Assembly (NCBI GenBank): GCA_029004655.1
Contig: JAQVYP010000001.1
Span: forward strand, 1-38,761
Direction of reading: 5' to 3'
Length of the DNA: 38,761 nt
DNA from: Oscillospiraceae bacterium
GTDB taxonomy: Bacteria; Bacillota; Clostridia; Oscillospirales; Acutalibacteraceae
Shown here one piece after another: positions 2,946-38,444 of the stretch (positions are counted from its first letter, which is position 1; every line of letters starts with the position of its first letter). The notes under the pieces are model-generated. The model was not told where the DNA came from, made no database searches, and saw nothing but the letters and a program-made list of their open reading frames with translations. Made by a program: the position numbers and the translations under genes.

Positions 2946-3381
2946 TCTTAAATGTAGCGTAATATAAATTTTTTACAATATATTTTACTTTGCAGAATTT
3001 TGACCGCACTAATGCTTTTTTTGAAAGTATTAGGAAAAAGAGGCCGGACGGACAGCCGGGTCAAATGCCGATTGGCAACTTTGTTGCCTTATTGATTAAG
3101 CTAAAGTGCAATAATGCGTTGATGCTTACTTTTTATAAGTTGGTTACTTAAAACCGTGTGTGGAGAACACATCACACTTGTGAAACGATCAATAAGAGTA
3201 GTAAAAGTATTTTGCTTGGGCAAAAATGTGCTATATAGACTCTGATTCTTGTCAAATATTGCGTTGATTTTTCAACTCAGTAAATACGGATGAATTATCG
3301 AAGAACACAAGTGTAACCGGTTTTAAACCGTCTCTTGAGTTCTTTTTATTTGCAAATTTCTAATTAAAAGGAAGCGGTATT
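2946..3381 (+). promoter_or_regulatory. Long structured 5' leader of the polyamine operon (candidate attenuator or riboswitch, class unknown)
   Basis: No ORF of 60 aa or more on either strand. Contains several local hairpins (e.g. GGCAAC-TTT-GTTGCC at 3074-3088) and ends in a terminator-like hairpin just before the speD RBS. Confidence 0.4.
3301..3351 (+). terminator. Leader terminator / attenuator hairpin upstream of speD
   Basis: AAGAACACAAGTGTAACCGG / CCGTCTCTTGAGTTCTT forms an imperfect stem of about 14 bp, followed by TTTTTATTT. It ends ~30 nt before the speD ATG. Confidence 0.55.
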
Positions 3382-4185
3382 ATGATCAGTAATATACAAG
3401 AAAAATTAAAACTTTATGGATTTAATAATCTTACAAAGTCGCTAAGCTTTAATATTTTTGATGTTTGCTATGCCAAAACTGAGCGTGAGCAAAAAGATTA
3501 CATCGAATATATTGACGAACAATACAATTCCGAGCGTCTTACTGCAATCATCACAAATGTTGCAAAAATGATTGGCGCCACTGTTTTAAGCATTTCTCGT
3601 CAGGATTATGAGCCTCAAGGCTCCAGCGTGGCATTTTTGATTGCTGAGGAATCTGTTGCTAAGCGTTTCACCGCTAATGATGAAGAGATATTGGCTCATC
3701 TTGATAAAAGCCATATCACCGTTCATACCTATCCGGAGTTTCATCCTGGCACATCAATTTCAACTTTCAGAGTGGATATAGATGTTGCCACATGCGGTGA
3801 AATCACCCCGCTTAGCACACTGGACTATCTGATTGGAAGCTTTGATTCCGATATTATCACAATGGATTATCGGGTCAGAGGATTCACAAGGGACATGACT
3901 GGCCATAAGCTGTTTATTGACCATGAAATTACATCAATTCAGGATTACATTGACAAGAAAACACTTCAACGATATGATGCTATTGACATCAATGTTTACC
4001 AGTCCAATATTTTTCACACCAAATTGCTGATAAAGGACATTGAACTTCAACACTATCTTTTTAATACTGATGTATACGAGCTTCCGCCAAAGGTGCGCCT
4101 TGATATTTTGAACAACCTTCACCGTGAGATGATTGAAATATACAGTGGCACAAATGTCTATTTGGGTGCAGATAAAAATGAATAA
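3382..4185 (+). CDS. speD: S-adenosylmethionine decarboxylase proenzyme (E. coli-type class 1B)
   Basis: 267 aa. [24 protein letters not shown] and [11 protein letters not shown] closely resemble E. coli SpeD. The self-processing and pyruvoyl region is [14 protein letters not shown]. Confidence 0.9.
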
Positions 4186-5635
4186 TGAAGATCAAAATAA
4201 AGCCCCAATAGCTGAGGCTTTGACAAATTTTAAAAAAATGAGGGTTGTCCCATTTGACGTGCCGGGGCATAAGCGCGGTAGAGGAACGCCCGAACTTTCA
4301 AGTTTTTTAGGGAAAACCTGCCTCGAAACCGATGTTAATTCCATGAAACCGCTTGATAATCTTTGCCATCCGATTTCCGTAATTCGTGAAGCAGAAGAAC
4401 TGGCGGCAGATGCTTTTGGAGCAGTGCAAGCATTCTTTATGGTGGGTGGAACAACATCAGCCGTGCAATCCATGATTTTATCGGTATGCAAAGATGGAGA
4501 TAAAATAATTTTACCCCGCAATGTTCACCGCAGTGCAATCAACGCAATAATTCTTTGCGGTGCTATACCTGTTTATATTAATCCGCAAACCGATTGTAAT
4601 CTGGGTATTTCACTTGGCATGAAAACAGATGATGTGATTCGTGCTATGTTGGACAATCCTGATGCAAAAGCAGTGCTTGTTAACAATCCTACTTATTATG
4701 GCATTGTGTCTGATTTAAAAGCAATTACAGAGGCCGCACATAAGTTACGGATAATGGTGTTGGCAGACGAGGCTCACGGTACACACTTCTATTTTGGCGA
4801 TGACATGCCTATCTCTGCTATGGCAGCAGGCGCAGACTTTGCCGCAGTCAGCATGCATAAATCGGGCGGCTCGCTGACACAAAGTTCCTTTTTGCTTTGT
4901 GGTAAATCAGTTAATGTGGGATATGTCAGACAAATTATTAATTTAACCCAAACCACCAGCGGATCATATTTGTTGCTTTCAAGCCTTGATATTGCCAGAA
5001 AAACTTTGGCTCTTAAAGGCAGGCAAATATTTAAGCAGGTTCAAGATTTGACCACCTATGCAAGAGAAGAAATTAACCGTATCGGCGACTTTTATGCATA
5101 TTCCAAGGAAATAGTCAATGGCGATACAATATTTGATTTCGATACAACGAAGCTATCAGTCTACACTTATGATGTGGGGCTTGCCGGAATTGAAATATAT
5201 GATATTTTGCGGGATGAATTTGATATTCAAGTGGAGTTCGGAGATTTGTCCAATATTTTAGCGTATGTTTCAGTTGGCGATCGAGAACGCGATATTGAAC
5301 GACTTGTTTCTGCTCTTGCTGAAATAAGGCGTAAATATAAACGTGAAAAAGCCCATTTGCATAAATATGAATATATTAGCCCAACAGTAGCTTTGACTCC
5401 TAAAGAGGCGTTTTACAGTGATAAGAAATCAGTACCCCTTGAAACAAGTTGCGGCGAAATATGCACGGAATTTGTAATGTGCTATCCTCCGGGAATTCCG
5501 ATTCTTGCTCCCGGCGAACGCATAACCAGGGGAATTATTGATTATATTAAATATGCGAGGGAAAAAGGTTGCTCATTAACGGGACCTGAAGATATGGATA
5601 TTAATTTCATTAATATTTGCAGAAAGGGTGGCTGA
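4178..5635 (+). CDS. speA: Arginine (Orn/Lys/Arg family) decarboxylase, Bacillus SpeA type, PLP-dependent
   Basis: Has the [12 protein letters not shown] motif and the PLP-lysine motif [14 protein letters not shown] chose the ATG at 4178 (MNNEDQNK), which overlaps the speD stop (ATGAATAA), rather than the upstream in-frame ATG at 4133 inside speD. Confidence 0.85.
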
Positions 5636-5637
5636 AA

Positions 5638-6489
5638 TTGGAACTGTGGTTTTCAGAAAAGCATACCGAAAATGTTAAATTATCAATAAAGGTTAGCGAA
5701 CATCTTTTTCACGAACAAAGTGGTTTTCAGCAGATAGATGTTTTTGATTCTATTGAGTTTGGGCGTTTTTTAACTCTCGACGGTTACATGATGTTGACCG
5801 AAAAAGATGAATTTATTTATCATGAAATGATGGTTCATGTACCAATGGCCGTACATCCATCGATAAAACGTGTTCTGATTATCGGTGCTGGTGACGGCGG
5901 TGTGCTTCGTGAATTAATAAAATATGATTACATTGAAAAAATTGACTTGGTGGAAATTGACGCGGAAGTTATAAAGGTTTGCAGAGAATACTTGCCCTTC
6001 ACTGCATGCGGATTTGACGATGAGCGTGTAAACATCACTTGTCAAGATGGACTTAAGTTCATTCGACATCCACATGATGAATATGATTTAATTATTGTCG
6101 ATTCTACTGACCCATTTGGCCCCGGAGAAGGCTTGTTTACAAGGGAATTTTACGGAAACTGTTACAAGGCTTTGCACGAAGACGGAATTTTAATCAATCA
6201 ACATGAAAGCCCGTTTTATAAGGAAGATGCGGCGGCGGTAACATATATTCACAAAAGAATTGTTGAATCATTTGAAGTCGCGCGAGTCTATCAAGCACAT
6301 ATTCCGACCTATCCTTCAGGGCATTGGCTGTTTGGTTTTGCTTCTAAAAAATATCATCCGGTAAAAGATATGAGAGCTAGCGAGTGGAAATCTTTGAATA
6401 TTAAGACCAGATACTATAATACCAATCTTCATCTGGGATCTTTTTATCTGCCAAATTACGTTGAGGAGTTACTTGTTGATGTGGAATAA
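5638..6489 (+). CDS. speE: Spermidine synthase / aminopropyltransferase
   Basis: Typical SpeE N-terminus (M)ELWFSEKHTENV, nucleotide-binding GAGDGGVLRE and DLIIVDSTDPFGP. Likely TTG start at 5638, 2 nt after the speA stop, with RBS AAGGGTGG. The track ORF starts at 5617. Confidence 0.88.
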   Translation: MELWFSEKHTENVKLSIKVSEHLFHEQSGFQQIDVFDSIEFGRFLTLDGYMMLTEKDEFIYHEMMVHVPMAVHPSIKRVLIIGAGDGGVLRELIKYDYIEKIDLVEIDAEVIKVCREYLPFTACGFDDERVNITCQDGLKFIRHPHDEYDLIIVDSTDPFGPGEGLFTREFYGNCYKALHEDGILINQHESPFYKEDAAAVTYIHKRIVESFEVARVYQAHIPTYPSGHWLFGFASKKYHPVKDMRASEWKSLNIKTRYYNTNLHLGSFYLPNYVEELLVDVE

Positions 6490-7345
6490 AAATGTTGAAA
6501 CATTTATCGGTTGCGACAGCGACTACGTAGATGCTGATATTATAATGTTCGGTGCTCCATTTGACTCTACAACTTCATATCGTCCGGGCACAAGATTTGC
6601 AAGCAAAGCGATCCGTTCAGAATCGTTCGGACTTGAGACCTACAGTCCCTATCAAGATAGGGATATGAGTGAAATCAAAGTTTTTGACGGCGGCGATTTA
6701 GAGCTTTGCTTTGGTGATACACAAGTTGCCCTTTCCGCGATAAGCGAGGCTGTCCAAAAAATAATTAACAGCAACAAGCGTCCGTTTATGATTGGTGGAG
6801 AACACCTTGTTACATTGGGCGCGGTTCGGGAAACGATAAAAAAATATCCCGATTTACACATAATTCACTTTGATGCACACACAGATTTGCGTGACGATTA
6901 TCTTGGAGCAAAACTATCACATGCAACAGTTATCAGACGTTGCTACGATTTAGTCGGAGAAGGCAAAATATTTCAATTCGGAATGCGATCAGGCGAAAAA
7001 TGTGAGTTCCTATTTGCCCGAGAGCACAACATTTTTCATCCGTTTAACCTTAACGGACTTGACAAGGTTGTGGCTCAGTTGCAAGGCAAACCTGTCTATT
7101 TTACGCTTGATTTAGATGTTTTGGATCCCTCGATTTTCCCCGGCACAGGAACGCCCGAAGCCGGAGGTATTACATTTATGGAGTTGCTGAATGCAATAAT
7201 TAATATTGGACAACTTAACATTGTCGGATGCGACGTGAATGAACTTGCACCGATTTACGATCAGAGCGGCTCATCAACGGCTGTTGCATGCAAGGTTGTA
7301 AGAGAACTGTTGTTATCAATAGGCAACCGAAAGGAGAATATATAA
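6479..7345 (+). CDS. speB: Agmatinase-family ureohydrolase (agmatine or N1-aminopropylagmatine ureohydrolase)
   Basis: Arginase-fold metal motifs GGEHLVTL, HFDAHTDL and DLDVLDP. The ATG at 6479 overlaps the speE end by 11 nt. RBS GAGGAG. Confidence 0.85.
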   Translation: MWNKNVETFIGCDSDYVDADIIMFGAPFDSTTSYRPGTRFASKAIRSESFGLETYSPYQDRDMSEIKVFDGGDLELCFGDTQVALSAISEAVQKIINSNKRPFMIGGEHLVTLGAVRETIKKYPDLHIIHFDAHTDLRDDYLGAKLSHATVIRRCYDLVGEGKIFQFGMRSGEKCEFLFAREHNIFHPFNLNGLDKVVAQLQGKPVYFTLDLDVLDPSIFPGTGTPEAGGITFMELLNAIINIGQLNIVGCDVNELAPIYDQSGSSTAVACKVVRELLLSIGNRKENI

Positions 7346-7347
7346 AT

Positions 7348-8547
7348 ATGGGAAAAGCATTAATTATCGGATGTGGCGGTGTGGCAAGTGTTGCCATTCA
7401 CAAGTGCTGCCAAAATAGTGATGTGTTTGAAGAAATTATGATTGCTAGCAGAACAAAATCAAAATGTGATGCTTTGAAAGCTAAGCTTGATGGCGGGAAA
7501 ACCATAATTCACACCGCACAGGTTGATGCAGATAATACTGTGGAATTAATTAAGTTGATTGAAAGCTTTAAGCCTGACGTGGTGCTTAATTTGGCATTGC
7601 CATATCAGGATTTAACTATAATGGATGCGTGTCTGGCGACAAAAACAAATTATGTTGACACAGCCAATTATGAGCCGCTTGATACTGCAAAGTTTGAATA
7701 TAAATGGCAGTGGGATTATAAAGAGCGCTTTGAAAAAGCAGGAATAACCGCACTGTTGGGCAGTGGCTTTGATCCGGGTGTCACAGGTGTGTTCTCTGCT
7801 TATGCAATGAAGCATGAGTTTGATGAAATTAATTATATAGACATTCTCGACTGTAACGGAGGCGACCACGGCTATCCTTTTGCGACAAATTTCAACCCTG
7901 AAATTAATATCCGCGAGGTTAGCGCGAAGGGAAGCTATTGGGAAAATGGTCATTGGGTTGAAACTGAGCCAATGGAAATCAAACGTGAATACAACTTTGA
8001 TGAAGTTGGAATTAAAGATATGTATCTTTTGCATCATGAGGAGCTTGAATCTCTTGCTCTTAACATCAAGGGAATTAAGCGGATTCGGTTTTTCATGACC
8101 TTTGGTCAAAGCTATTTAACTCATTTAAAATGTCTTGAAAATGTTGGCATGACATCAATAAAACCTATCGAATTTGAGGGTAAGCAGATTGTTCCGCTGC
8201 AATTTTTAAAAGCGATATTGCCTGACCCGTCAACTCTGGGCCCACGCACTGTCGGTAAAACAAACATCGGCTGCATTTTCCGTGGAAAAAAAGGTGGAAA
8301 AGATAAAACCTATTATATTTACAATGTTTGCGACCATCAGGAATGCTATCGTGAAGTTGGCTCACAAGCGATTTCATATACCACAGGTGTACCTGCTATG
8401 ATTGGTGCAATGCTTGTTATGAACGGCACCTGGAAAGGCGCCGGCGTGTTTAACATCGAAGAATTTGATCCCGACCCATTTATGGATGCATTAAATAAAT
8501 TTGGGCTGCCGTGGCAAGAGGATTTCAATCCTACATTGGTGGACTGA
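7348..8547 (+). CDS. Carboxy(nor)spermidine dehydrogenase/synthase (saccharopine dehydrogenase family)
   Basis: 400 aa from the ATG at 7348 (MGKALIIGCGGVASVAIHKC Rossmann N-terminus). Length and architecture match CANSDH/CASDH. The gene sits directly upstream of the cognate decarboxylase. Confidence 0.8.
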   Translation: MGKALIIGCGGVASVAIHKCCQNSDVFEEIMIASRTKSKCDALKAKLDGGKTIIHTAQVDADNTVELIKLIESFKPDVVLNLALPYQDLTIMDACLATKTNYVDTANYEPLDTAKFEYKWQWDYKERFEKAGITALLGSGFDPGVTGVFSAYAMKHEFDEINYIDILDCNGGDHGYPFATNFNPEINIREVSAKGSYWENGHWVETEPMEIKREYNFDEVGIKDMYLLHHEELESLALNIKGIKRIRFFMTFGQSYLTHLKCLENVGMTSIKPIEFEGKQIVPLQFLKAILPDPSTLGPRTVGKTNIGCIFRGKKGGKDKTYYIYNVCDHQECYREVGSQAISYTTGVPAMIGAMLVMNGTWKGAGVFNIEEFDPDPFMDALNKFGLPWQEDFNPTLVD

Positions 8548-8548
8548 T

Positions 8549-9691
8549 ATGCAAAGTGTTCCGATGTTTGATTTTAAGTCTTTACCCTCACCTTGCTATG
8601 TTGTGGACAAGCGACTGCTAGTGCAAAATCTCGAGTTGTTGCATCAGGTAAAACAGAAAACAGGGGCAAAAATTTTGCTTGCACAAAAAGCGTTTGCAAT
8701 GCATTCACTTTATCCAATGATTCACGAATATCTGGACGGAACCACCGCCAGCGGATTATTTGAGGCTAAGCTCGGGGCCGAAAAAATGGGCGGAGAAACC
8801 CACGTTTTTTCACCAGCATATAATAAGAACGAGTTTTCGGAGATCTGCCAAATTTGCGACCACATAATTTTTAATTCCATGAGTCAATGGGAGAAATTCA
8901 GTGCAAGCGCCTTAGCCGCCAAAAAAAGTTGTGGATTGCGAATTAATCCTGAATGTTCAACTCAAGAACACGGAATTTATGATCCTTGTTCGCCTTTTTC
9001 TAGGTTAGGCATCACTATCGACAATTTTCCTGAAAATCTGCCACAAGGGATTGAAGGCTTGCACTTGCACACGTTGTGTGAGCAAAATGCAGATGCACTG
9101 CAAAAAACAATTGAAGCATCCGAGAAAAAATTCGGCAAATATTTTTCACAGATAAAATGGTTGAATCTTGGTGGTGGTCATCACATAACCAGAGCTGATT
9201 ATGATGTTGAACTGCTGTGCAAAACTATTGAGACAATTAAAAGCCGTTATGGGCTGGAAATATATCTTGAGCCGGGCGAGGCAGTTGTTTTGAATACCGG
9301 ATTTTTAGTTGCAACTGTGGAAGATATTATAGATAATGGAATGGAAATTGCGATTTTGGACACCTCCGCCTCATGCCATATGCCCGATGTGCTTGAAATG
9401 CCATATCGCCCTGAGATTATTGGCGCCGCGGGTTCGGGTGAGGAAGAATATACTTATCGTTTAGGCGCAAACACTTGCCTTGCGGGCGACATTATCGGCG
9501 ATTATTCTTTTGGCAAACCACTAAACGTGGGCGAGCGCCTGATTTTTTGCGACATGGCACATTACTCAATGGTTAAAAGTAATATGTTCAACGGCATAAA
9601 TTTGCCATCAATTGCAGTGATTAATATGGATGGTGAGCCGCAAATAATCCGCACTTTTGGCTACGAGGATTATAAAGAACGATTGTCATAA
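8549..9691 (+). CDS. nspC: Carboxy(nor)spermidine decarboxylase
   Basis: 380 aa from the ATG at 8549, 1 nt after the preceding stop. Alanine racemase-fold decarboxylase with LPSPCYVVDKRLL, LNLGGGHH and EPGEAVV, in the typical pairing with the dehydrogenase. Confidence 0.82.
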   Translation: MQSVPMFDFKSLPSPCYVVDKRLLVQNLELLHQVKQKTGAKILLAQKAFAMHSLYPMIHEYLDGTTASGLFEAKLGAEKMGGETHVFSPAYNKNEFSEICQICDHIIFNSMSQWEKFSASALAAKKSCGLRINPECSTQEHGIYDPCSPFSRLGITIDNFPENLPQGIEGLHLHTLCEQNADALQKTIEASEKKFGKYFSQIKWLNLGGGHHITRADYDVELLCKTIETIKSRYGLEIYLEPGEAVVLNTGFLVATVEDIIDNGMEIAILDTSASCHMPDVLEMPYRPEIIGAAGSGEEEYTYRLGANTCLAGDIIGDYSFGKPLNVGERLIFCDMAHYSMVKSNMFNGINLPSIAVINMDGEPQIIRTFGYEDYKERLS

Positions 9692-9700
9692 AATAGTATT

Positions 9701-9857
9701 ATACTAATTCCAATTAAAAAGTGACCAAGATTTGCGAGGATTTTGTTTGTGAGACAAGGCGGAGGACGAAGGCGGGCTATCGCCCGCCGAGAACGACAAC
9801 GCAGTCTCGCAAACAAAAGACCACGAAGATTGGTTGATTTTTATTTGGAATTAGTAT
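9701..9857 (+). repeat. Copy 1 of a dispersed 157-bp long-hairpin element (MITE/REP-like or structured RNA)
   Basis: Termini are ATACTAATTCCAA ... TTGGAATTAGTAT. The whole unit is an imperfect palindrome with GC-rich apex GGCGGGC-TATC-GCCCGCC. It is 97-99% identical to the copies at 14465-14621 (reverse) and 18915-19071. Confidence 0.9.
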
Positions 9858-9883
9858 TATATAATTAATTAATAGAACCGACC

Positions 9884-14385: not shown

Positions 14386-14464
14386 GTCTCCCTTTTCACG
14401 GGTGATGGTGTATTACAGCCTAACGGAGGATTTGAAAGCCAATATTCTCTGTAATTATAGATTA

Positions 14465-14621
14465 ATACTAATTCCAAATAAAAATCGACCAATCTTCGCG
14501 GTCTTTTGTTTGCGAGACTGCGTTGTCGTTCTCGGCGGGCGATAGCCCGCCTTCGTCCTCCGCCTTGTCTCACAAACAAAATCCTCGCAAATCTTGGTCA
14601 CTTTTTAATTGGAATTAGTAT
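14465..14621 (-). repeat. Copy 2 of the 157-bp long-hairpin element (inverted orientation)
   Basis: Its reverse complement differs from copy 1 at only 2 positions (A>G and T>C, both in the right arm). It lies between the htpG terminator and the rpsR terminator. Confidence 0.9.
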
Positions 14622-14660
14622 AAAACTATTTTTCTGTTTTTAGTTTTTAATTTTTTGCAA

Positions 14661-14707
14661 AAAACCATCGGCGTATCAATAAAGCCCTGTTGATACGCCG
14701 ATGGTTT
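14661..14707 (-). terminator. Intrinsic terminator of the rpsF-ssb-rpsR operon
   Basis: AAAACCATCGGCGTATCAA - loop - TTGATACGCCGATGGTTT (~18-bp stem), with a T-run on the minus strand. Confidence 0.7.
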
Positions 14708-14753
14708 AATACAAAAAAAGCCGAAGCAAATATGCTCCGACTTTGATGTTTAA

Positions 14754-18034: not shown

Positions 18035-18093
18035 TACTATTTACAATTAAAAAGCGTCCAAAGATTTGCGTGGATTTTAGTTGGAATTAGTAT
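18034..18093 (+). repeat. Copy 3: 60-bp internally deleted, degenerate derivative of the long-hairpin element
   Basis: ATACTATTTACAATTAAAAAGCGTCCAAAGATTTGCGTGGATTTT is the left arm with several substitutions. It is joined directly to AG-TTGGAATTAGTAT (the right terminus). The ~100-bp GC-rich core is missing. It abuts the coaX stop codon. Confidence 0.75.
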
Positions 18094-18251: not shown

Positions 18252-18881
18252 ATGAAAAAAAACAACTCGCAAAAAACTCAGAGATTGGTATTGTTTTCAA
18301 TTTTTGCCGCTATTCTTGTAGTAATGAGTGCTACACCACTTGGATACTTGAGAATTGGTGCTTTGGCCATTTCTTTCCTTACCATTCCGGTTACTATCGG
18401 CGCAGTACTATTGGGACCCATAAGTGGTGCAACATTGGGATTATTATTTGGACTTACAAGCTTTTTCCAATGCTTTGGTTTCTTGTTTTGGCCTATAGAC
18501 CCATTGGGATCTGCACTTTTCGCAATCAATCCCATATATATGACGATAGTATGTATCGTTCCAAGGGTACTTATGGGATTACTAGTAGGATTAATTTTTA
18601 AGGCAATCCGTAAAGTTGATAAGACGGATACTATGAGCTATGCTGTTGCAAGTTTGTCCGGATCGGTTTTAAACACAATTCTATTTATATCAACTCTTTT
18701 ATTGTTTTTTTACAACACAAATGAAATCCAGGCGTATGTTACTCAACTAAACGCAAAAAATGTATTCGTATTTGCGGCGTTATTTGTTGGAATTAATGCA
18801 GTTTTTGAAGCACTCGTAGCATTCATTGTATCATTCCCAGTAACAAAAGCAGTTGCAAGATATTCAAAAAGATTTGCATAG
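18252..18881 (+). CDS. ECF transporter S component (substrate unknown; PanT-like by context)
   Basis: 209 aa with ~6 TMs and a motif region LTIPVTIGAVLLGPISGATLGLLFGLTSF typical of ECF S components. No adjacent ecfA/ecfT. Its position next to coaX suggests pantothenate, but this is only context. Confidence 0.65.
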   Translation: MKKNNSQKTQRLVLFSIFAAILVVMSATPLGYLRIGALAISFLTIPVTIGAVLLGPISGATLGLLFGLTSFFQCFGFLFWPIDPLGSALFAINPIYMTIVCIVPRVLMGLLVGLIFKAIRKVDKTDTMSYAVASLSGSVLNTILFISTLLLFFYNTNEIQAYVTQLNAKNVFVFAALFVGINAVFEALVAFIVSFPVTKAVARYSKRFA

Positions 18882-18914
18882 TTTTATCTTTACCAATCAC
18901 AACTATAATTGCTA

Positions 18915-19071
18915 ATACTAATTCCAATTAAAAAGTGACCAAGATTTGCGAGGATTTTGTTTGTGAGACAAGGCGGAGGACGAAGGCGGGCTATTGCCCG
19001 CCGAGAACGACAACGCAATCTCGCAAACAAAAGACCGCGAAGATTGGTTGGTTTTTATTTGGAATTAGTAT
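18915..19071 (+). repeat. Copy 4 of the 157-bp long-hairpin element
   Basis: Same orientation as copy 1, with 4 differences out of 157 (one in the apical loop, three in the right arm). Located 33 nt after the S-component stop. Confidence 0.9.
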
Positions 19072-19086
19072 AATACAACTTGGCAT

Positions 19087-33495: not shown

Positions 33496-34428
33496 TTACT
33501 TTTTGTTTTTACACTTGCAAGTTGACTTTTTACCAGAAGCGGAAAACAATTTTGCGGAATTTTTTAAACCTGTATTGGTTAAACTTGTATTGATTAAGCT
33601 TGAATTGGTTACATTTAAATTGGTAGAGCCACAATTTGTGCAAATATCTTCACTTGTAGCTTCAATACATTCTACAGATGGAGCACCGGTACTGGCAACT
33701 GAACCGAATTCAACGTTGACAGCAACACAGACATCCTGTGCCATTGTAAAGAAACAACTTCCATTAACCATTCCGGGACAAGCAGTTTCACCTGATGTTA
33801 CAACGGGAGTTCCACAACAAGTCGTGGTTGTTGTGCCCGCAGTCGCAAATGGCGTTACCGTCACGGGCACACATACCGTTGATGATTCATAAGCAGTTTT
33901 TTCGCATGTTTGTATGCTCTTACATGCAGGTCCGCAAATGCTTAATCCTGATTTAGTTTCGTTCCCACCAAACAAACATACATTATTAGGACCGATAGGA
34001 TAAGGCGTTGTCAGCTCAAAGCAAAAATTCATCACACCGCCAACCTTATTCAAGCCAAAGTCGAGTTTCAGTCCCGGACAGCCTGTCGGAGGATCCGGTT
34101 GAGCAAGTGTGCGTAATTCCACATTACCACCCGGTCCAAAAATTACTTCTTGTGGGTCGCCATCTATCGTTACAGATACATTAACAATTTCATTTTGAGC
34201 AATTTCATCGCATATTCCTAATACCAAATGACTCAAATCTTTAAATTGTGGCAGATCTTGCCCCACGCCGGTGACAATGTAACAAAAGCGTTGATTTTCA
34301 CCCGGTGAAGGATTCAAATTTGAATTTGCTACATCTAATTCTATTAAAAACGGAAGAATTACATCTCCAATAACATTGCTGTAATTGATTTGTAAATTGC
34401 AAGACAATTCTTCACTTTGCTGTAACAT
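33496..34428 (-). CDS. Cys/Thr-rich protein, long paralog (unrecognised N-domain, shared Cys-rich module, basic tail)
   Basis: 310 aa with no signal peptide. Its C-terminal half (STVCVPVTVTPFATAGTTTTTCCGTPVVTSG...ATSEDICTNCG) is paralogous to the whole upstream 108-aa protein. The tail is SLINTSLTNTGLKN...KCKCKNKK. RBS AAAGGAGAA. Confidence 0.7.
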   Translation of the reverse strand: MLQQSEELSCNLQINYSNVIGDVILPFLIELDVANSNLNPSPGENQRFCYIVTGVGQDLPQFKDLSHLVLGICDEIAQNEIVNVSVTIDGDPQEVIFGPGGNVELRTLAQPDPPTGCPGLKLDFGLNKVGGVMNFCFELTTPYPIGPNNVCLFGGNETKSGLSICGPACKSIQTCEKTAYESSTVCVPVTVTPFATAGTTTTTCCGTPVVTSGETACPGMVNGSCFFTMAQDVCVAVNVEFGSVASTGAPSVECIEATSEDICTNCGSTNLNVTNSSLINTSLTNTGLKNSAKLFSASGKKSTCKCKNKK

Positions 34429-34451: not shown

Positions 34452-34778
34452 TTACAAATTGCAGTTTGTACAAATATCTTCACTTGTTGCATCACCACAT
34501 TCTACAGCCGGAGCGCCGACAGTTGCTACAGCGCCAAAATTAACAGGAACTGCAACACAAAGAGTTTGAGCAATTGTAAAGTAACAGCTTCCGTTAATTG
34601 TCCCAGCGCAGATAGTACTACCGGATGTTATAACCGGGTCACCGCAACAGGTCGTGGTTGTTGCACCAGCTGTTGCAAATGGCGTGACAACTACAGGAAC
34701 ACATACCGTTGCAGATTGATATCCTGTTGCAGGGCAAGTCTGGACAGGATCTTGGAATGCCCTTAAATTAACTGACAT
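34452..34778 (-). CDS. Cys/Thr-rich protein, short paralog (stand-alone Cys-rich module)
   Basis: 108 aa with a perfect RBS AAAGGAGGAA. Sequence: ATVCVPVVVTPFATAGATTTTCCGDPVITSGSTICAGTINGSCYFTIAQTLCVAVPVNFGAVATVGAPAVECGDATSEDICTNCNL. 10 Cys, no signal peptide. Confidence 0.7.
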   Translation of the reverse strand: MSVNLRAFQDPVQTCPATGYQSATVCVPVVVTPFATAGATTTTCCGDPVITSGSTICAGTINGSCYFTIAQTLCVAVPVNFGAVATVGAPAVECGDATSEDICTNCNL

Positions 34779-37914: not shown

Positions 37915-38081
37915 TAACATATAGCTGTAATCGTAACCCGGCATTGAAAAAGTGCTGATTCATTTTACTCAAACAAGAAACCTGCTATAATTTTATCAGG
38001 TTTATAGAAGCGCGGGATCACTTTAAAGACCACCTTGTCAACGGTTTAGCGCTATGCTCCTAATGACTCAGATTAACACTT

Positions 38082-38239
38082 ATACTAATCTCAAATAAAA
38101 ACGTAGATATCTTTACGATCTAGTTTTCGTCCCGCCGCGTTGTCGTCGGCGGCGGGCGCTAGCCCGCTGTCCTCCTCCGCCTTGCGGGACAAAAACTATC
38201 CTCGCAAATCTAATCTCCATTTTTAATTGAGATTAGTAT
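38082..38239 (-). repeat. Copy 5: divergent subfamily member of the long-hairpin element
   Basis: Termini are ATACTAATCTCAA ... TTGAGATTAGTAT, with the change compensated in both arms. It is 158 bp with the same architecture and shares the conserved blocks TCCTCGCAAATCT, CGTTGTCGT, TCCTCCGCCTT and a GC apex. Confidence 0.85.
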
Positions 38240-38320
38240 TACGCCCATAAAGAGATACACCCGGCTAATATTAATATCAAGAATGCTATCTGGCAACCGC
38301 AATAGCGAAAAGTAAAGAGT

Positions 38321-38366
38321 AAAACAGAAACGACAACTTTCTGTCGAAAATTGTCGTTTCTGTTTT
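38321..38366 (-). terminator. Intrinsic terminator downstream of tRNA-Val
   Basis: AAAACAGAAACGACAA - loop - TTGTCGTTTCTGTTTT, with a T-run on the minus strand. It starts 2 nt after the tRNA 3' end. Confidence 0.65.
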
Positions 38367-38367
38367 G

Positions 38368-38444
<77 letters not shown>

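Follow-up and report, generated by a model that had tools for sequence, protein, structure and literature searches.

A Hairpin-Forming Repeat and Its Divergent Copy

Towards one end of the window (the whole 38,761-nucleotide stretch of DNA analyzed here), the interval 38082-38239 (ATACTAATCTC...GAGATTAGTAT) can fold back on itself, and both of its arms differ in a matched way from those of another copy in the same orientation. The locus therefore raises the question of whether it is a selected structure, and in which molecule and on which strand this structure would act, or a mobile element. An earlier note on this DNA had proposed a structured RNA or a protein-recognised DNA cruciform, and had set this against the neutral decay of a dead mobile element.

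The interval is a divergent copy (copy 5) of a 155-158 bp repeat, and can be aligned end to end with copy 2 (14465-14621). A copy does lie where the earlier note had placed it, although the exact element spans 38083-38238 and has a TTA duplication on either side. A repeat search related it to 157-170 bp repeats at 9690-9866, 14457-14632 and 18913-19081; copy 5 is 72-80% identical to these three, which are 96-98% identical to each other. With an internally deleted derivative, the window contains four full copies and one deleted copy, five in 38.7 kb:

9702-9856, plus strand: copy 1, subfamily W1, between TTA duplications at 9699-9701 and 9857-9859.
14466-14620, minus strand: copy 2, subfamily W1, between TAA duplications at 14463-14465 and 14621-14623.
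18035-18092, plus strand: copy 3, a 58-bp internally deleted derivative with a TAA duplication on both sides.
18916-19070, plus strand: copy 4, subfamily W1, between TAA duplications at 18913-18915 and 19071-19073; absent at the same site in contigs L076 and L077.
38083-38238, minus strand (the better-folding strand, with purine-rich loops): copy 5, 156 bp, divergent subfamily W5, assigned by alignment, RNA minimum free energy and covariance model R1.

Copy 1 starts 10 nt past the stop codon of the ORF at 8501-9691, copy 2 is located between the htpG stop codon and a terminator, and copy 3 retains both ends and one conserved block. The covariance model R1 scores copy 5 at 111.6 bits on the minus strand. 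The parts of copy 5 are as follows:

38080-38082, no strand: left target-site duplication TTA (sequence and TNA statistics).
38083-38101, plus strand: left terminal inverted repeat TACTAATCTCAAATAAAAA, partner of 38220-38238 (inverted repeat; the same ends occur in the IS630-family elements of L147, L094 and L145).
38109-38120, plus strand: conserved block ATCTTTACGATC, a short conserved helix and a GA-type internal loop with 38198-38211.
38121-38135, plus strand: 5' arm of the 15-bp inner helix, partner of 38184-38198 (covariation).
38136-38147, plus strand: conserved block CGCGTTGTCGTC; its minus strand, GACGACAACGCG, is one side of the purine-rich internal loop.
38148-38169, plus strand: GC-rich apical hairpin GGCGGCGGGC-GCTA-GCCCGCTG (folding).
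38170-38184, plus strand: conserved block TCCTCCTCCGCCTTG; its minus strand, CAAGGCGGAGGAGGA, is the other side of the purine-rich internal loop.
38184-38198, plus strand: 3' arm of the inner helix, GCGGGACAAAAACTA.
38198-38211, plus strand: conserved block ATCCTCGCAAATCT (five window matches against 0.44 expected).
38220-38238, plus strand: right terminal inverted repeat TTTTTAATTGAGATTAGTA.
38239-38241, no strand: right target-site duplication TTA (sequence and TNA statistics).

The earlier comparison of copies 2 and 5 stands in all its sequence details. In the terminal repeat, ATTCC/GGAAT is replaced by ATCTC/GAGAT, and a check on the sequence found both pairs compensated as claimed. In the inner helix (38121-38135 with 38184-38198), TTTTGTTTGCGAGAC/GTCTCACAAACAAAA of copy 2 becomes TAGTTTTCGTCCCGC/GCGGGACAAAAACTA of copy 5, which indeed amounts to seven pairs swapped for other Watson-Crick pairs and one C:A in each version. 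The next helix out is re-paired as well, but its plus strand pairs at just 4-5 of 6-7 positions. The blocks ATCCTCGCAAATCT, CGTTGTCGT and TCCTCCGCCTTG and the apex GGCGGGC..GCCCGC are identical in the two copies. The claimed invariance of the loop blocks thus holds for this pair, but not for the most divergent subfamilies, where they vary, partly by compensation.

The Repeat Is Almost Certainly a Non-autonomous Transposon

One genome per species was scanned with two of the conserved blocks, which retrieved at least 75 loci. Among the 75 loci listed, 71 belong to 25 assemblies of Oscillospiraceae, Acutalibacteraceae, Ruminococcus or "Clostridia," and the other four are chance matches in GC-rich genomes. 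A profile search of the window and the at least 75 loci then recovered at least 81 full-length copies, some of them with no match to the search pattern, which form 11 subfamilies at 90% identity. One cultured carrier is Ruminococcus sp. zg-924, with a copy at L023:4391-4548. All copies among the matches listed are intergenic, with none inside an ORF.

The size of the element (155-158 bp), its lack of coding capacity and its terminal inverted repeats (19-27 nt, with at least 89% complementarity in the window copies) are those of a miniature transposon (MITE). Its sole ORF is a chance frame of about 40 codons on the purine-rich strand that is not kept between subfamilies, since indels in the apex shift the frame. 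A coding remnant was rejected, as these indels and the compensated stems favor structure. The middle base of the flanking TNA is the same on the left and right in 66 of the 81 copies among the matches listed, so the element proper is TAC...GTA and duplicates TNA. Transposition as a single strand of the IS200/IS605 or REPIN type is ruled out by the same count.

The copy 4 site gives direct evidence of movement. Contigs from other samples encode an ECF-transporter protein identical to that of window positions 18252-18881, and two of them (L076 and L077) do not have copy 4. The empty site reads ATTGC-TAA-TACAACTT (beginning TACAAC) and the filled site of the window ATTGC-TAA-[TAC..155 bp..GTA]-TAA-TACAACTT, which indicates recent movement within the window's species. 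The TA duplication expected for an IS630-type element is ruled out by this empty site and by copies flanked by TGA or TCA. An origin in phages or plasmids was likewise discarded, because blastn against 50,697 phage and 72,556 plasmid records gave 0 matches; the core pattern had one match in IMG/VR, coding and by chance.

It is thus almost certain that the repeat is a MITE mobilised by a transposase of the IS630 family. The earlier note was right that it does not look like neutral decay, but it had argued against a dead mobile element where TNA duplication, an empty site and an IS630-family partner point to a live one. "Mobile element" and "selected structure" are therefore not alternatives.

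An IS630-Family Partner in Metagenome Contigs

A partner was sought by scanning metagenome contigs for the terminal repeat followed by non-core sequence. This uncovered 1.1-kb elements with the ends of the MITE (ATACTAATCTCAA.TAAAA) at L147:584-1680, at L094:4573-5685 (identical in L172) and in L145, together with a shortened copy of about 0.8 kb in L122 that bears the transposase. There are three distinct full-length elements with non-identical flanks. The intact element of L147 encodes a 172-aa helix-turn-helix ORF, then an A7 run, then a 169-aa DDE ORF; these ORFs match Pfam DDE_3 (2.6e-24), HTH_33/HTH_23 and the NCBIfam model NF033545 transpos_IS630 (136 bits against a cut-off of 100, 1.7e-39). 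By tblastn the IS630 transposase is found in five loci only (L147, L094, L172, L145 and L122), all of them metagenome contigs. A scan for terminal-repeat pairs, an all-against-all megablast and tblastn detected no partner in the window or in the at least 75 genome loci, as is expected of a non-autonomous element.

The insertion sequence and the MITE have about 20 bp in common at each end, and the insertion sequence contains nothing resembling the core. The IS630 family is usually said to duplicate TA, and MITEs with these ends duplicate TNA instead. Either this is a variant within the IS630 family, or the usual definition of the family is too narrow. An IS5/Harbinger-type partner, first guessed from the TNA duplication, was dropped once the IS630 elements were found. 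A three-base duplication by an IS630-family element is of small interest for transposon mechanics.

The Core Covaries as Strongly as the Ends

Copies 2 and 5 each fold as one rod of about -68 kcal/mol as RNA (z about -10.5), and none of 200 shuffled sequences folded as well. The claim of covariation was upheld by RNAalifold on 64 copies, which predicted 39 pairs, 26 of them with double changes. Over the whole element, 37 of 53 pairs are compensated among 72 distinct trimmed copies. Sliding the 3' partners lowers the covariation score from the observed 0.371 to no more than 0.066, and shuffles score at most 0.117; 0 of 500 shuffles reach the observed value, a control that overstates significance because the copies are related.

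The simpler explanation for compensation in the terminal repeats is that both ends match the same transposase. Since compensation in the outer 20 bp could follow from this, the 115-nt core was counted separately. Compensation is seen in 23 of the 34 core pairs, 96.6% of the core cells pair, and the core score of 0.466 compares with at most 0.083 for slid partners and is reached by 0 of 500 shuffles (again of related copies). By helix, the inner helix (helix 3) has 10 of 13 pairs compensated, five of the six pairs of the apex (helix 5) covary between subfamilies, and helix 2, formed by the block ATCTTTACGATC, is 98.5% paired. Even the conserved helix TTTGCG/CGCAAA has been exchanged in two subfamilies, for TTTCCG/CGGAAA in the first and for UUAUCGG/CCGAUAA in the second.

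Invariance was built into the two blocks by which the copies were retrieved. ATCTTTGCGGTCT and GCGTTGTCGTC lie outside the search pattern, as does CGCGTTGTCGTC of copy 5 (38136-38147), and the first two are still at least 90% conserved. The view of the hairpin as a selected secondary structure with sequence-conserved internal loops is supported by core covariation away from the transposase-bound ends. An independent fold-back origin for each subfamily was ruled out, because all subfamilies carry the same asymmetric loops. A search of Rfam 15 with both strands gave no match at gathering score, and only chance matches of snoRNA type at E up to 10, so that the element is not a known riboswitch, ribozyme, 6S-like RNA or other family.

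The Fold Is Very Probably Selected on One Strand

The earlier note had written out the hairpin on the plus strand of copy 5, but it is the opposite strand that folds best: the RNA minimum free energy of copy 5 is -80.3 kcal/mol for the minus strand and -66.8 kcal/mol for the plus strand. Across the family, the strand carrying the purine-rich loops averages -74.8 kcal/mol against -56.3 kcal/mol for its complement, and is the better one in 72 of 72 copies. In the window, this better strand is plus in copies 1 and 4 and minus in copies 2 and 5. The asymmetry is equally present with DNA parameters (-43.8 against -36.1 kcal/mol).

The mismatches point in the same direction. In helix cells read on the strand of the earlier note, A·C (G·U on the other strand) outnumbers G·T by 345:29, and by 53:6 in the 11 subfamily consensuses. 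Circularity was avoided by folding the consensuses with wobble pairs forbidden and classifying the symmetric mismatches. The A·C to G·T ratio was then 31:2 in 1x1 and 2x2 loops and 36:3 when 3x3 loops were included, with pyrimidine·pyrimidine to purine·purine at 66:4. This excess of A·C and pyrimidine·pyrimidine identifies the opposite strand, where they become G·U and purine·purine, as the folded one; on that strand, every departure of the palindrome from perfect pairing is a G·U, a G·A or an A·A.

The internal loops of the folded strand are AUUUGCGAGGAU / AGACCGCAAAGAU and CAAGGCGGAGGAC / GACGACAACGC. The large one has a G:C at every third position with tandem purine·purine mismatches between (5'-G AG G AC G / 3'-C AA C AG C), and in three divergent subfamilies its GGAGGA and GACGAC sides are swapped.

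We consider it very probable that a strand-specific fold is under selection. A double-stranded cruciform, or any double-stranded site, predicts no strand bias and is disfavored. Homogenisation of the palindrome is disfavored as well, since it predicts no bias either and would erase the asymmetric loops. Of the two molecules offered by the earlier note, the double-stranded cruciform thus loses ground, and what remains is RNA or single-stranded DNA.

Inserted Copies and Their Neighbors

Orientation appears random with respect to genes. Among the matches listed, the purine-loop strand is sense in 18 and antisense in 26 tandem contexts, while nine copies have convergent and 12 have divergent neighboring genes. 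There is no orientation bias in these matches relative to genes, or to replication with tandem contexts as a proxy, and about half of the copies would consequently be read through as the poorer-folding strand. No consistent or conserved -35/-10 promoter was recognized within the element.

Two observations bear on what happens after insertion. In the genome with the largest burst, singleton substitutions are mostly pair-breaking and show no depletion in stems, with 27 in 106 paired and 11 in 58 unpaired columns. Individual copies thus seem to be decaying neutrally, a sign that selection may act when copies propagate. On the other hand, three insertions occupy the same site in different species and have diverged less than the mostly coding sequence on either side (identities of 98.1% against 84-87%, 98.7% against 94% and 96.8% against 93-95%), which could reflect either constraint in place or gene conversion among copies.

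RNA or Single-Stranded DNA

In the explanation that we propose, an IS630-family DDE transposase, provided in trans by the insertion sequence of about 1.1 kb, would bind about 20 bp at each end, and insertion would proceed by cut-and-paste into TNA with its duplication. The 115-nt core, which does not derive from the insertion sequence, would extend the terminal repeats into a single 157-nt rod in which the helices vary, two purine-rich internal loops keep their sequence and a GC-rich hairpin forms the apex, and selection would act on the fold of the purine-loop strand only. Usually placed in 3' or 5' untranslated stretches, the element would become RNA by read-through from neighboring genes. 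The GA/GGA-rich loops of the folded rod may then form a protein-binding (or ribosome- or SD-mimicking), nuclease-resistant module. Such a rod might make insertions tolerated or useful, so that the core would be kept and carried by more than one transposon backbone. Taken as a whole (a MITE, an IS630 partner and a one-strand fold acting as RNA), this explanation seems to us somewhat more probable than its negation. Given a selected fold, we lean slightly toward RNA rather than DNA as the folded molecule, because the core is independent of any one transposase, because it is kept in place across species, and because IS630-type transposition has no known single-stranded step.

The main rival holds that the selected single strand is DNA, on a lagging-strand template or in a transposition intermediate. 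The rod would aid mobilisation or copying, for instance by bringing the two ends together or through recognition of its purine-rich loops, and would serve the spread of the element only. This is possible, but we hold it to be the less probable reading. It is the main competitor because orientation is unbiased, individual copies decay and DNA parameters show the asymmetry equally. It accounts well for a strand asymmetry that belongs to the element itself, whichever way the neighboring genes run, and for singletons that break pairs at the rate of loops, as expected if only propagating copies are selected. G·T and sheared G·A pairs are stable in DNA hairpins too. The core-bearing family is, moreover, by far the most abundant MITE with these ends among the matches listed. 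REPINs offer a precedent: compensatory changes maintain their hairpin, and they have been proposed to move as single-stranded DNA (PMC3116915).

Against a DNA role, unrelated interiors are found between the same ends and TNA duplications in other MITE families of 53-500 bp, which have spread without a long hairpin (L011:2708-2815, its relatives L054:6601-6710 and L088:6398, and two in a viral contig), so the transposase does not need the rod. Transposases of the IS630/Tc1-mariner type work on double-stranded ends, and to our knowledge no single-stranded step is known for them. Besides, the core also sits on a second backbone with unrelated ends, and is thus not tied to one transposase. This is a 157-bp element with ends GGTCACCTCTAAAAAC...GTTTTTAGAGGTGACC (GGTCACCTCT..) and a TAAA duplication in 3 of 3 copies, whose homologous core scores 49.8 bits with covariance model R1. 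L029:2209-2375 is a chimera of the two backbones with its junction at the apex. Finally, a role in propagation only does not predict orthologous copies more conserved than the flanking genes, and the unbiased orientation in tandem contexts (18:26 among the matches listed), our proxy for replication direction, also speaks against it.

The apical loop has the classical stable form, GNNA, on the strand opposite to the folded one, an observation that was counted against the RNA reading.

That no single-stranded fold is selected at all appears improbable. Recognition would then be double-stranded, with the conserved blocks as sites for the transposase or a host DNA-binding protein, and the arms would be complementary through shared protein sites together with template switching or gene conversion within the element. 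Transposase co-evolution is indeed expected to produce compensation in the outer 20 bp or so; the subfamilies with different ends (ATACTAATTCC, ATACTGCTCTC, ATAGTCGATTAAC...) fit this reading, and the subterminal TTTGCG/CGCAAA is equidistant from both ends, like an inner binding site. Correction of quasi-palindromes is also an established mutational mechanism. However, the core covaries as strongly as the ends, and homogenisation would have erased the asymmetric loops, which are conserved. G·T and A·C should be equally frequent on double-stranded DNA or in a cruciform, against the observed 36:3 (and 66:4 for pyrimidine·pyrimidine to purine·purine). The blocks are, in addition, missing from the insertion sequence and from the other MITEs with the same kind of ends.

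Least of all do we expect the rod, a GC-rich hairpin between an A-tract and a T-tract, to be mainly a bidirectional intrinsic terminator or transcript-end stabiliser gained by the host with each insertion, even though AAAAA upstream and TTTTT downstream of the core are kept in all subfamilies, the window's four full copies all lie downstream of genes (three between convergent ones), function in either orientation would fit the lack of orientation bias, and REP, ERIC and Correia elements affect mRNA ends (PMC3184786). The T-runs flank the rod in both directions, paired with A-runs, but these tracts belong to the transposase-bound ends and are present in the insertion sequence too. Neither the conserved purine-rich loops nor the strand bias is required for termination, and 12 copies among the matches listed lie between divergent genes. 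The element does not seem to be needed as a terminator, because the empty site of copy 4 has its own, retained after insertion, and copies 2 and 5 likewise adjoin separate canonical terminators (14651-14718 and 38321-38366).

Relation to Known Elements

We thus return to a MITE whose core is very probably selected to fold on one strand, favored as RNA. Its general kind is already known, as it is Correia-, RUP- or bcr1-like. What sets it apart are conserved purine-rich loops, a quantified strand bias, an exchangeable backbone and a three-base duplication.

Correia (NEMIS) elements of Neisseria resemble it in size (about 105-157 bp), in having terminal inverted repeats and a short A/T target duplication, in numbering hundreds of intergenic copies, and in forming a hairpin from the whole element in transcripts. 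They differ in their TA duplication, IHF site and promoter elements, in having no known transposase, and in belonging to another phylum. We know of no description of conserved asymmetric purine-rich loops or of a strand-specific wobble bias in Correia elements. The RUP element of Streptococcus pneumoniae, mobilised by IS630-Spn1, is, like ours, an intergenic, non-coding Firmicutes MITE with ends matching an IS630-family element. Unlike the present repeat, it is 107 bp long, duplicates TA and has no long structured core, whereas here TNA is duplicated and the core is unrelated to the insertion sequence.

In the Bacillus cereus group, the bcr1 repeat is about 155 bp long, mobile with direct repeats and non-conserved in its distribution between strains, and compensatory changes keep its structure at the RNA level (PMC3184786). 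However, bcr1 duplicates 5 bp, folds with two stems into a cruciform-like shape and has no known transposase. It shares no sequence similarity with our family, which forms a single rod whose GA-rich internal loops are conserved and for which an IS630 partner has been identified. REPINs and their RAYT transposases share compensation on both arms, and single-stranded folding has been proposed to matter for their propagation (PMC3116915). They have no target duplication, a tyrosine HUH transposase and conserved sequences in the stems, in contrast to the DDE transposase partner, TNA duplication and conserved internal loops found here. No RAYT was detected in the window, and the TNA duplication and DDE-transposon ends are foreign to a REPIN/RAYT system, whose REP palindromes have a head of the GTAG/CGTC type.

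MITEs of the Stowaway and MiHsmar1 type (Tc1-mariner) are also short hairpin-forming derivatives, served by transposases of the same superfamily (IS630-Tc1-mariner); they differ in being eukaryotic, in duplicating TA, and in that their hairpins feed small-RNA pathways absent from bacteria. The family of copy 5 is not described in a general review of MITEs (PMC10969869), and a full-text search of the literature returned nothing specific on MITEs in Ruminococcus or on IS630 elements with TNA duplication.

Implications

Beyond this explanation, we tentatively raise a further possibility that goes against the more probable course of things: the 115-nt core may be a mobile structured module in its own right, a new RNA class with GA/GGA-rich loops that was spread through gut Clostridia by at least two unrelated backbones and then kept by its hosts. 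An RNA of such a class might serve as a protein sponge or as an SD mimic, or might even be a small ribozyme. Were this true, the core would be a "mobile non-coding RNA gene" rather than transposon filler.

For those who annotate these genomes, a covariance model is now at hand for a repeat whose share of them is probably about 1-2% and which breaks their assemblies. MITEs that form hairpins have been described in Neisseria, pneumococci, enterobacteria and the Bacillus cereus group, and it has rarely been clear whether their structure is selected and in which molecule. In the gut and rumen Clostridia, which are abundant and poorly studied, this family is an unusually clean case, with dozens of compensated pairs, two conserved purine-rich loops, a strand bias of about 14:1, an IS630-type partner and two backbones. 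The purpose of a MITE hairpin is therefore directly testable in it, by swapping strands and by mutating the loops.

The core on a second backbone and its apical loop

A core homologous to that of the studied MITE is carried by a second MITE backbone, where it was recognized by the covariance model of the studied element (model R1, 49.8 bits). This backbone, with ends GGTCACCTCTAAAAAC...GTTTTTAGAGGTGACC, is flanked by a TAAA duplication in all three copies, and the two backbones also occur joined in a chimera (L-numbers denote loci from other genomes and metagenome samples).

L005:1071-1227 and L088:3301-3457, second MITE backbone, 157 bp
L029:2209-2375, chimera of both MITE backbones, junction at the apex
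Window 38158-38161, apical loop of copy 5

In all copies of the studied MITE (columns 77-85 of their alignment, A3), the apical loop reads G-N-N-A (GTCA, GATA, GCTA or GCCA) on the pyrimidine-loop strand and U-N-N-C on the purine-loop strand, which otherwise folds better and was taken as the folded one. The form of this loop is the sole feature that speaks against that strand assignment.

Shared ends and IS630-family elements

The ATACTAATCTCAAATAAAA ends and the TNA duplication recur in numerous further MITE families, 53-500 bp long, whose interiors are unrelated; one pair of such MITEs is carried by an IMG/VR viral contig. Matching ends are also found on IS630-family insertion sequences.

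L011:2708-2815, L054:6601-6710 and L081:10103-10400, MITEs with ATACTAATCTCAAATAAAA ends and unrelated interiors
Among L082-L196 (e.g., L165:1792, L102, L119:936), further such MITEs
L147:584-1680, L094:4573-5685 and L145, IS630-family insertion sequences with MITE-matching ends

The usual target duplication of the IS630 family is TA; the MITEs sharing ends with these insertion sequences duplicate TNA instead. Left and right flanks differ in the three distinct full-length IS630-family copies (TGA/TCA, TTA/TCA and TTA/TGA). Between the HTH ORF and the DDE ORF lies an A7 run, suggestive of programmed frameshifting.

Surroundings of the copies in the window

Window 9698-9727, minus strand, outward-facing promoter-like pair (TGGTCA, 18 nt, TATAAT; 10/12 matches)
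Window 38368-38444, minus strand, tRNA-Val(CAC)
Window 38321-38366, minus strand, terminator with a 20-bp stem, after the tRNA
Window 3001-3071, plus strand, SpF59/ldcC RNA, Rfam match (44.2 bits; gathering score 37.2)
Window 33632-33898 and 34462-34728, direct repeat of 267 nt (72% identity, spacing 830 nt)

The -10 box of the promoter-like pair arises from the element end GTA together with the TNA duplication and the bases that immediately follow in the flank. Copy 5 lies approximately 80 nt beyond the tRNA-Val terminator, and transcription from the tRNA side would therefore reach it only by read-through. Elsewhere, the SpF59/ldcC RNA match is upstream of a polyamine-synthesis gene cluster (3382 to 9691), and the direct repeat overlaps two neighboring ORFs, one of 310 aa that is rich in cysteine and threonine (33496-34428, minus strand) and one of 108 aa. 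Their products appear to be paralogs, small and secreted or spore-coat-like.

Occupied insertion sites

Window 18035-18092, internally deleted MITE derivative of 58 bp, both ends and one conserved block retained
L014:5821-5978 / L043:4435-4592, L007/L037 and L026/L041, insertion sites shared between different species

The 58-bp derivative has TAA on either side and is immediately preceded by a pantothenate-kinase gene. The intergenic distance is the same (218 bp) in L076, a contig lacking copy 4, which suggests that the derivative may be present there as well. At L014/L043, a gap of 10-12 nt separates the end of the MITE from the ribosome-binding site of the downstream gene. At the three sites shared between species, the MITE is 97-99% identical, compared to 84-95% for the flanks.
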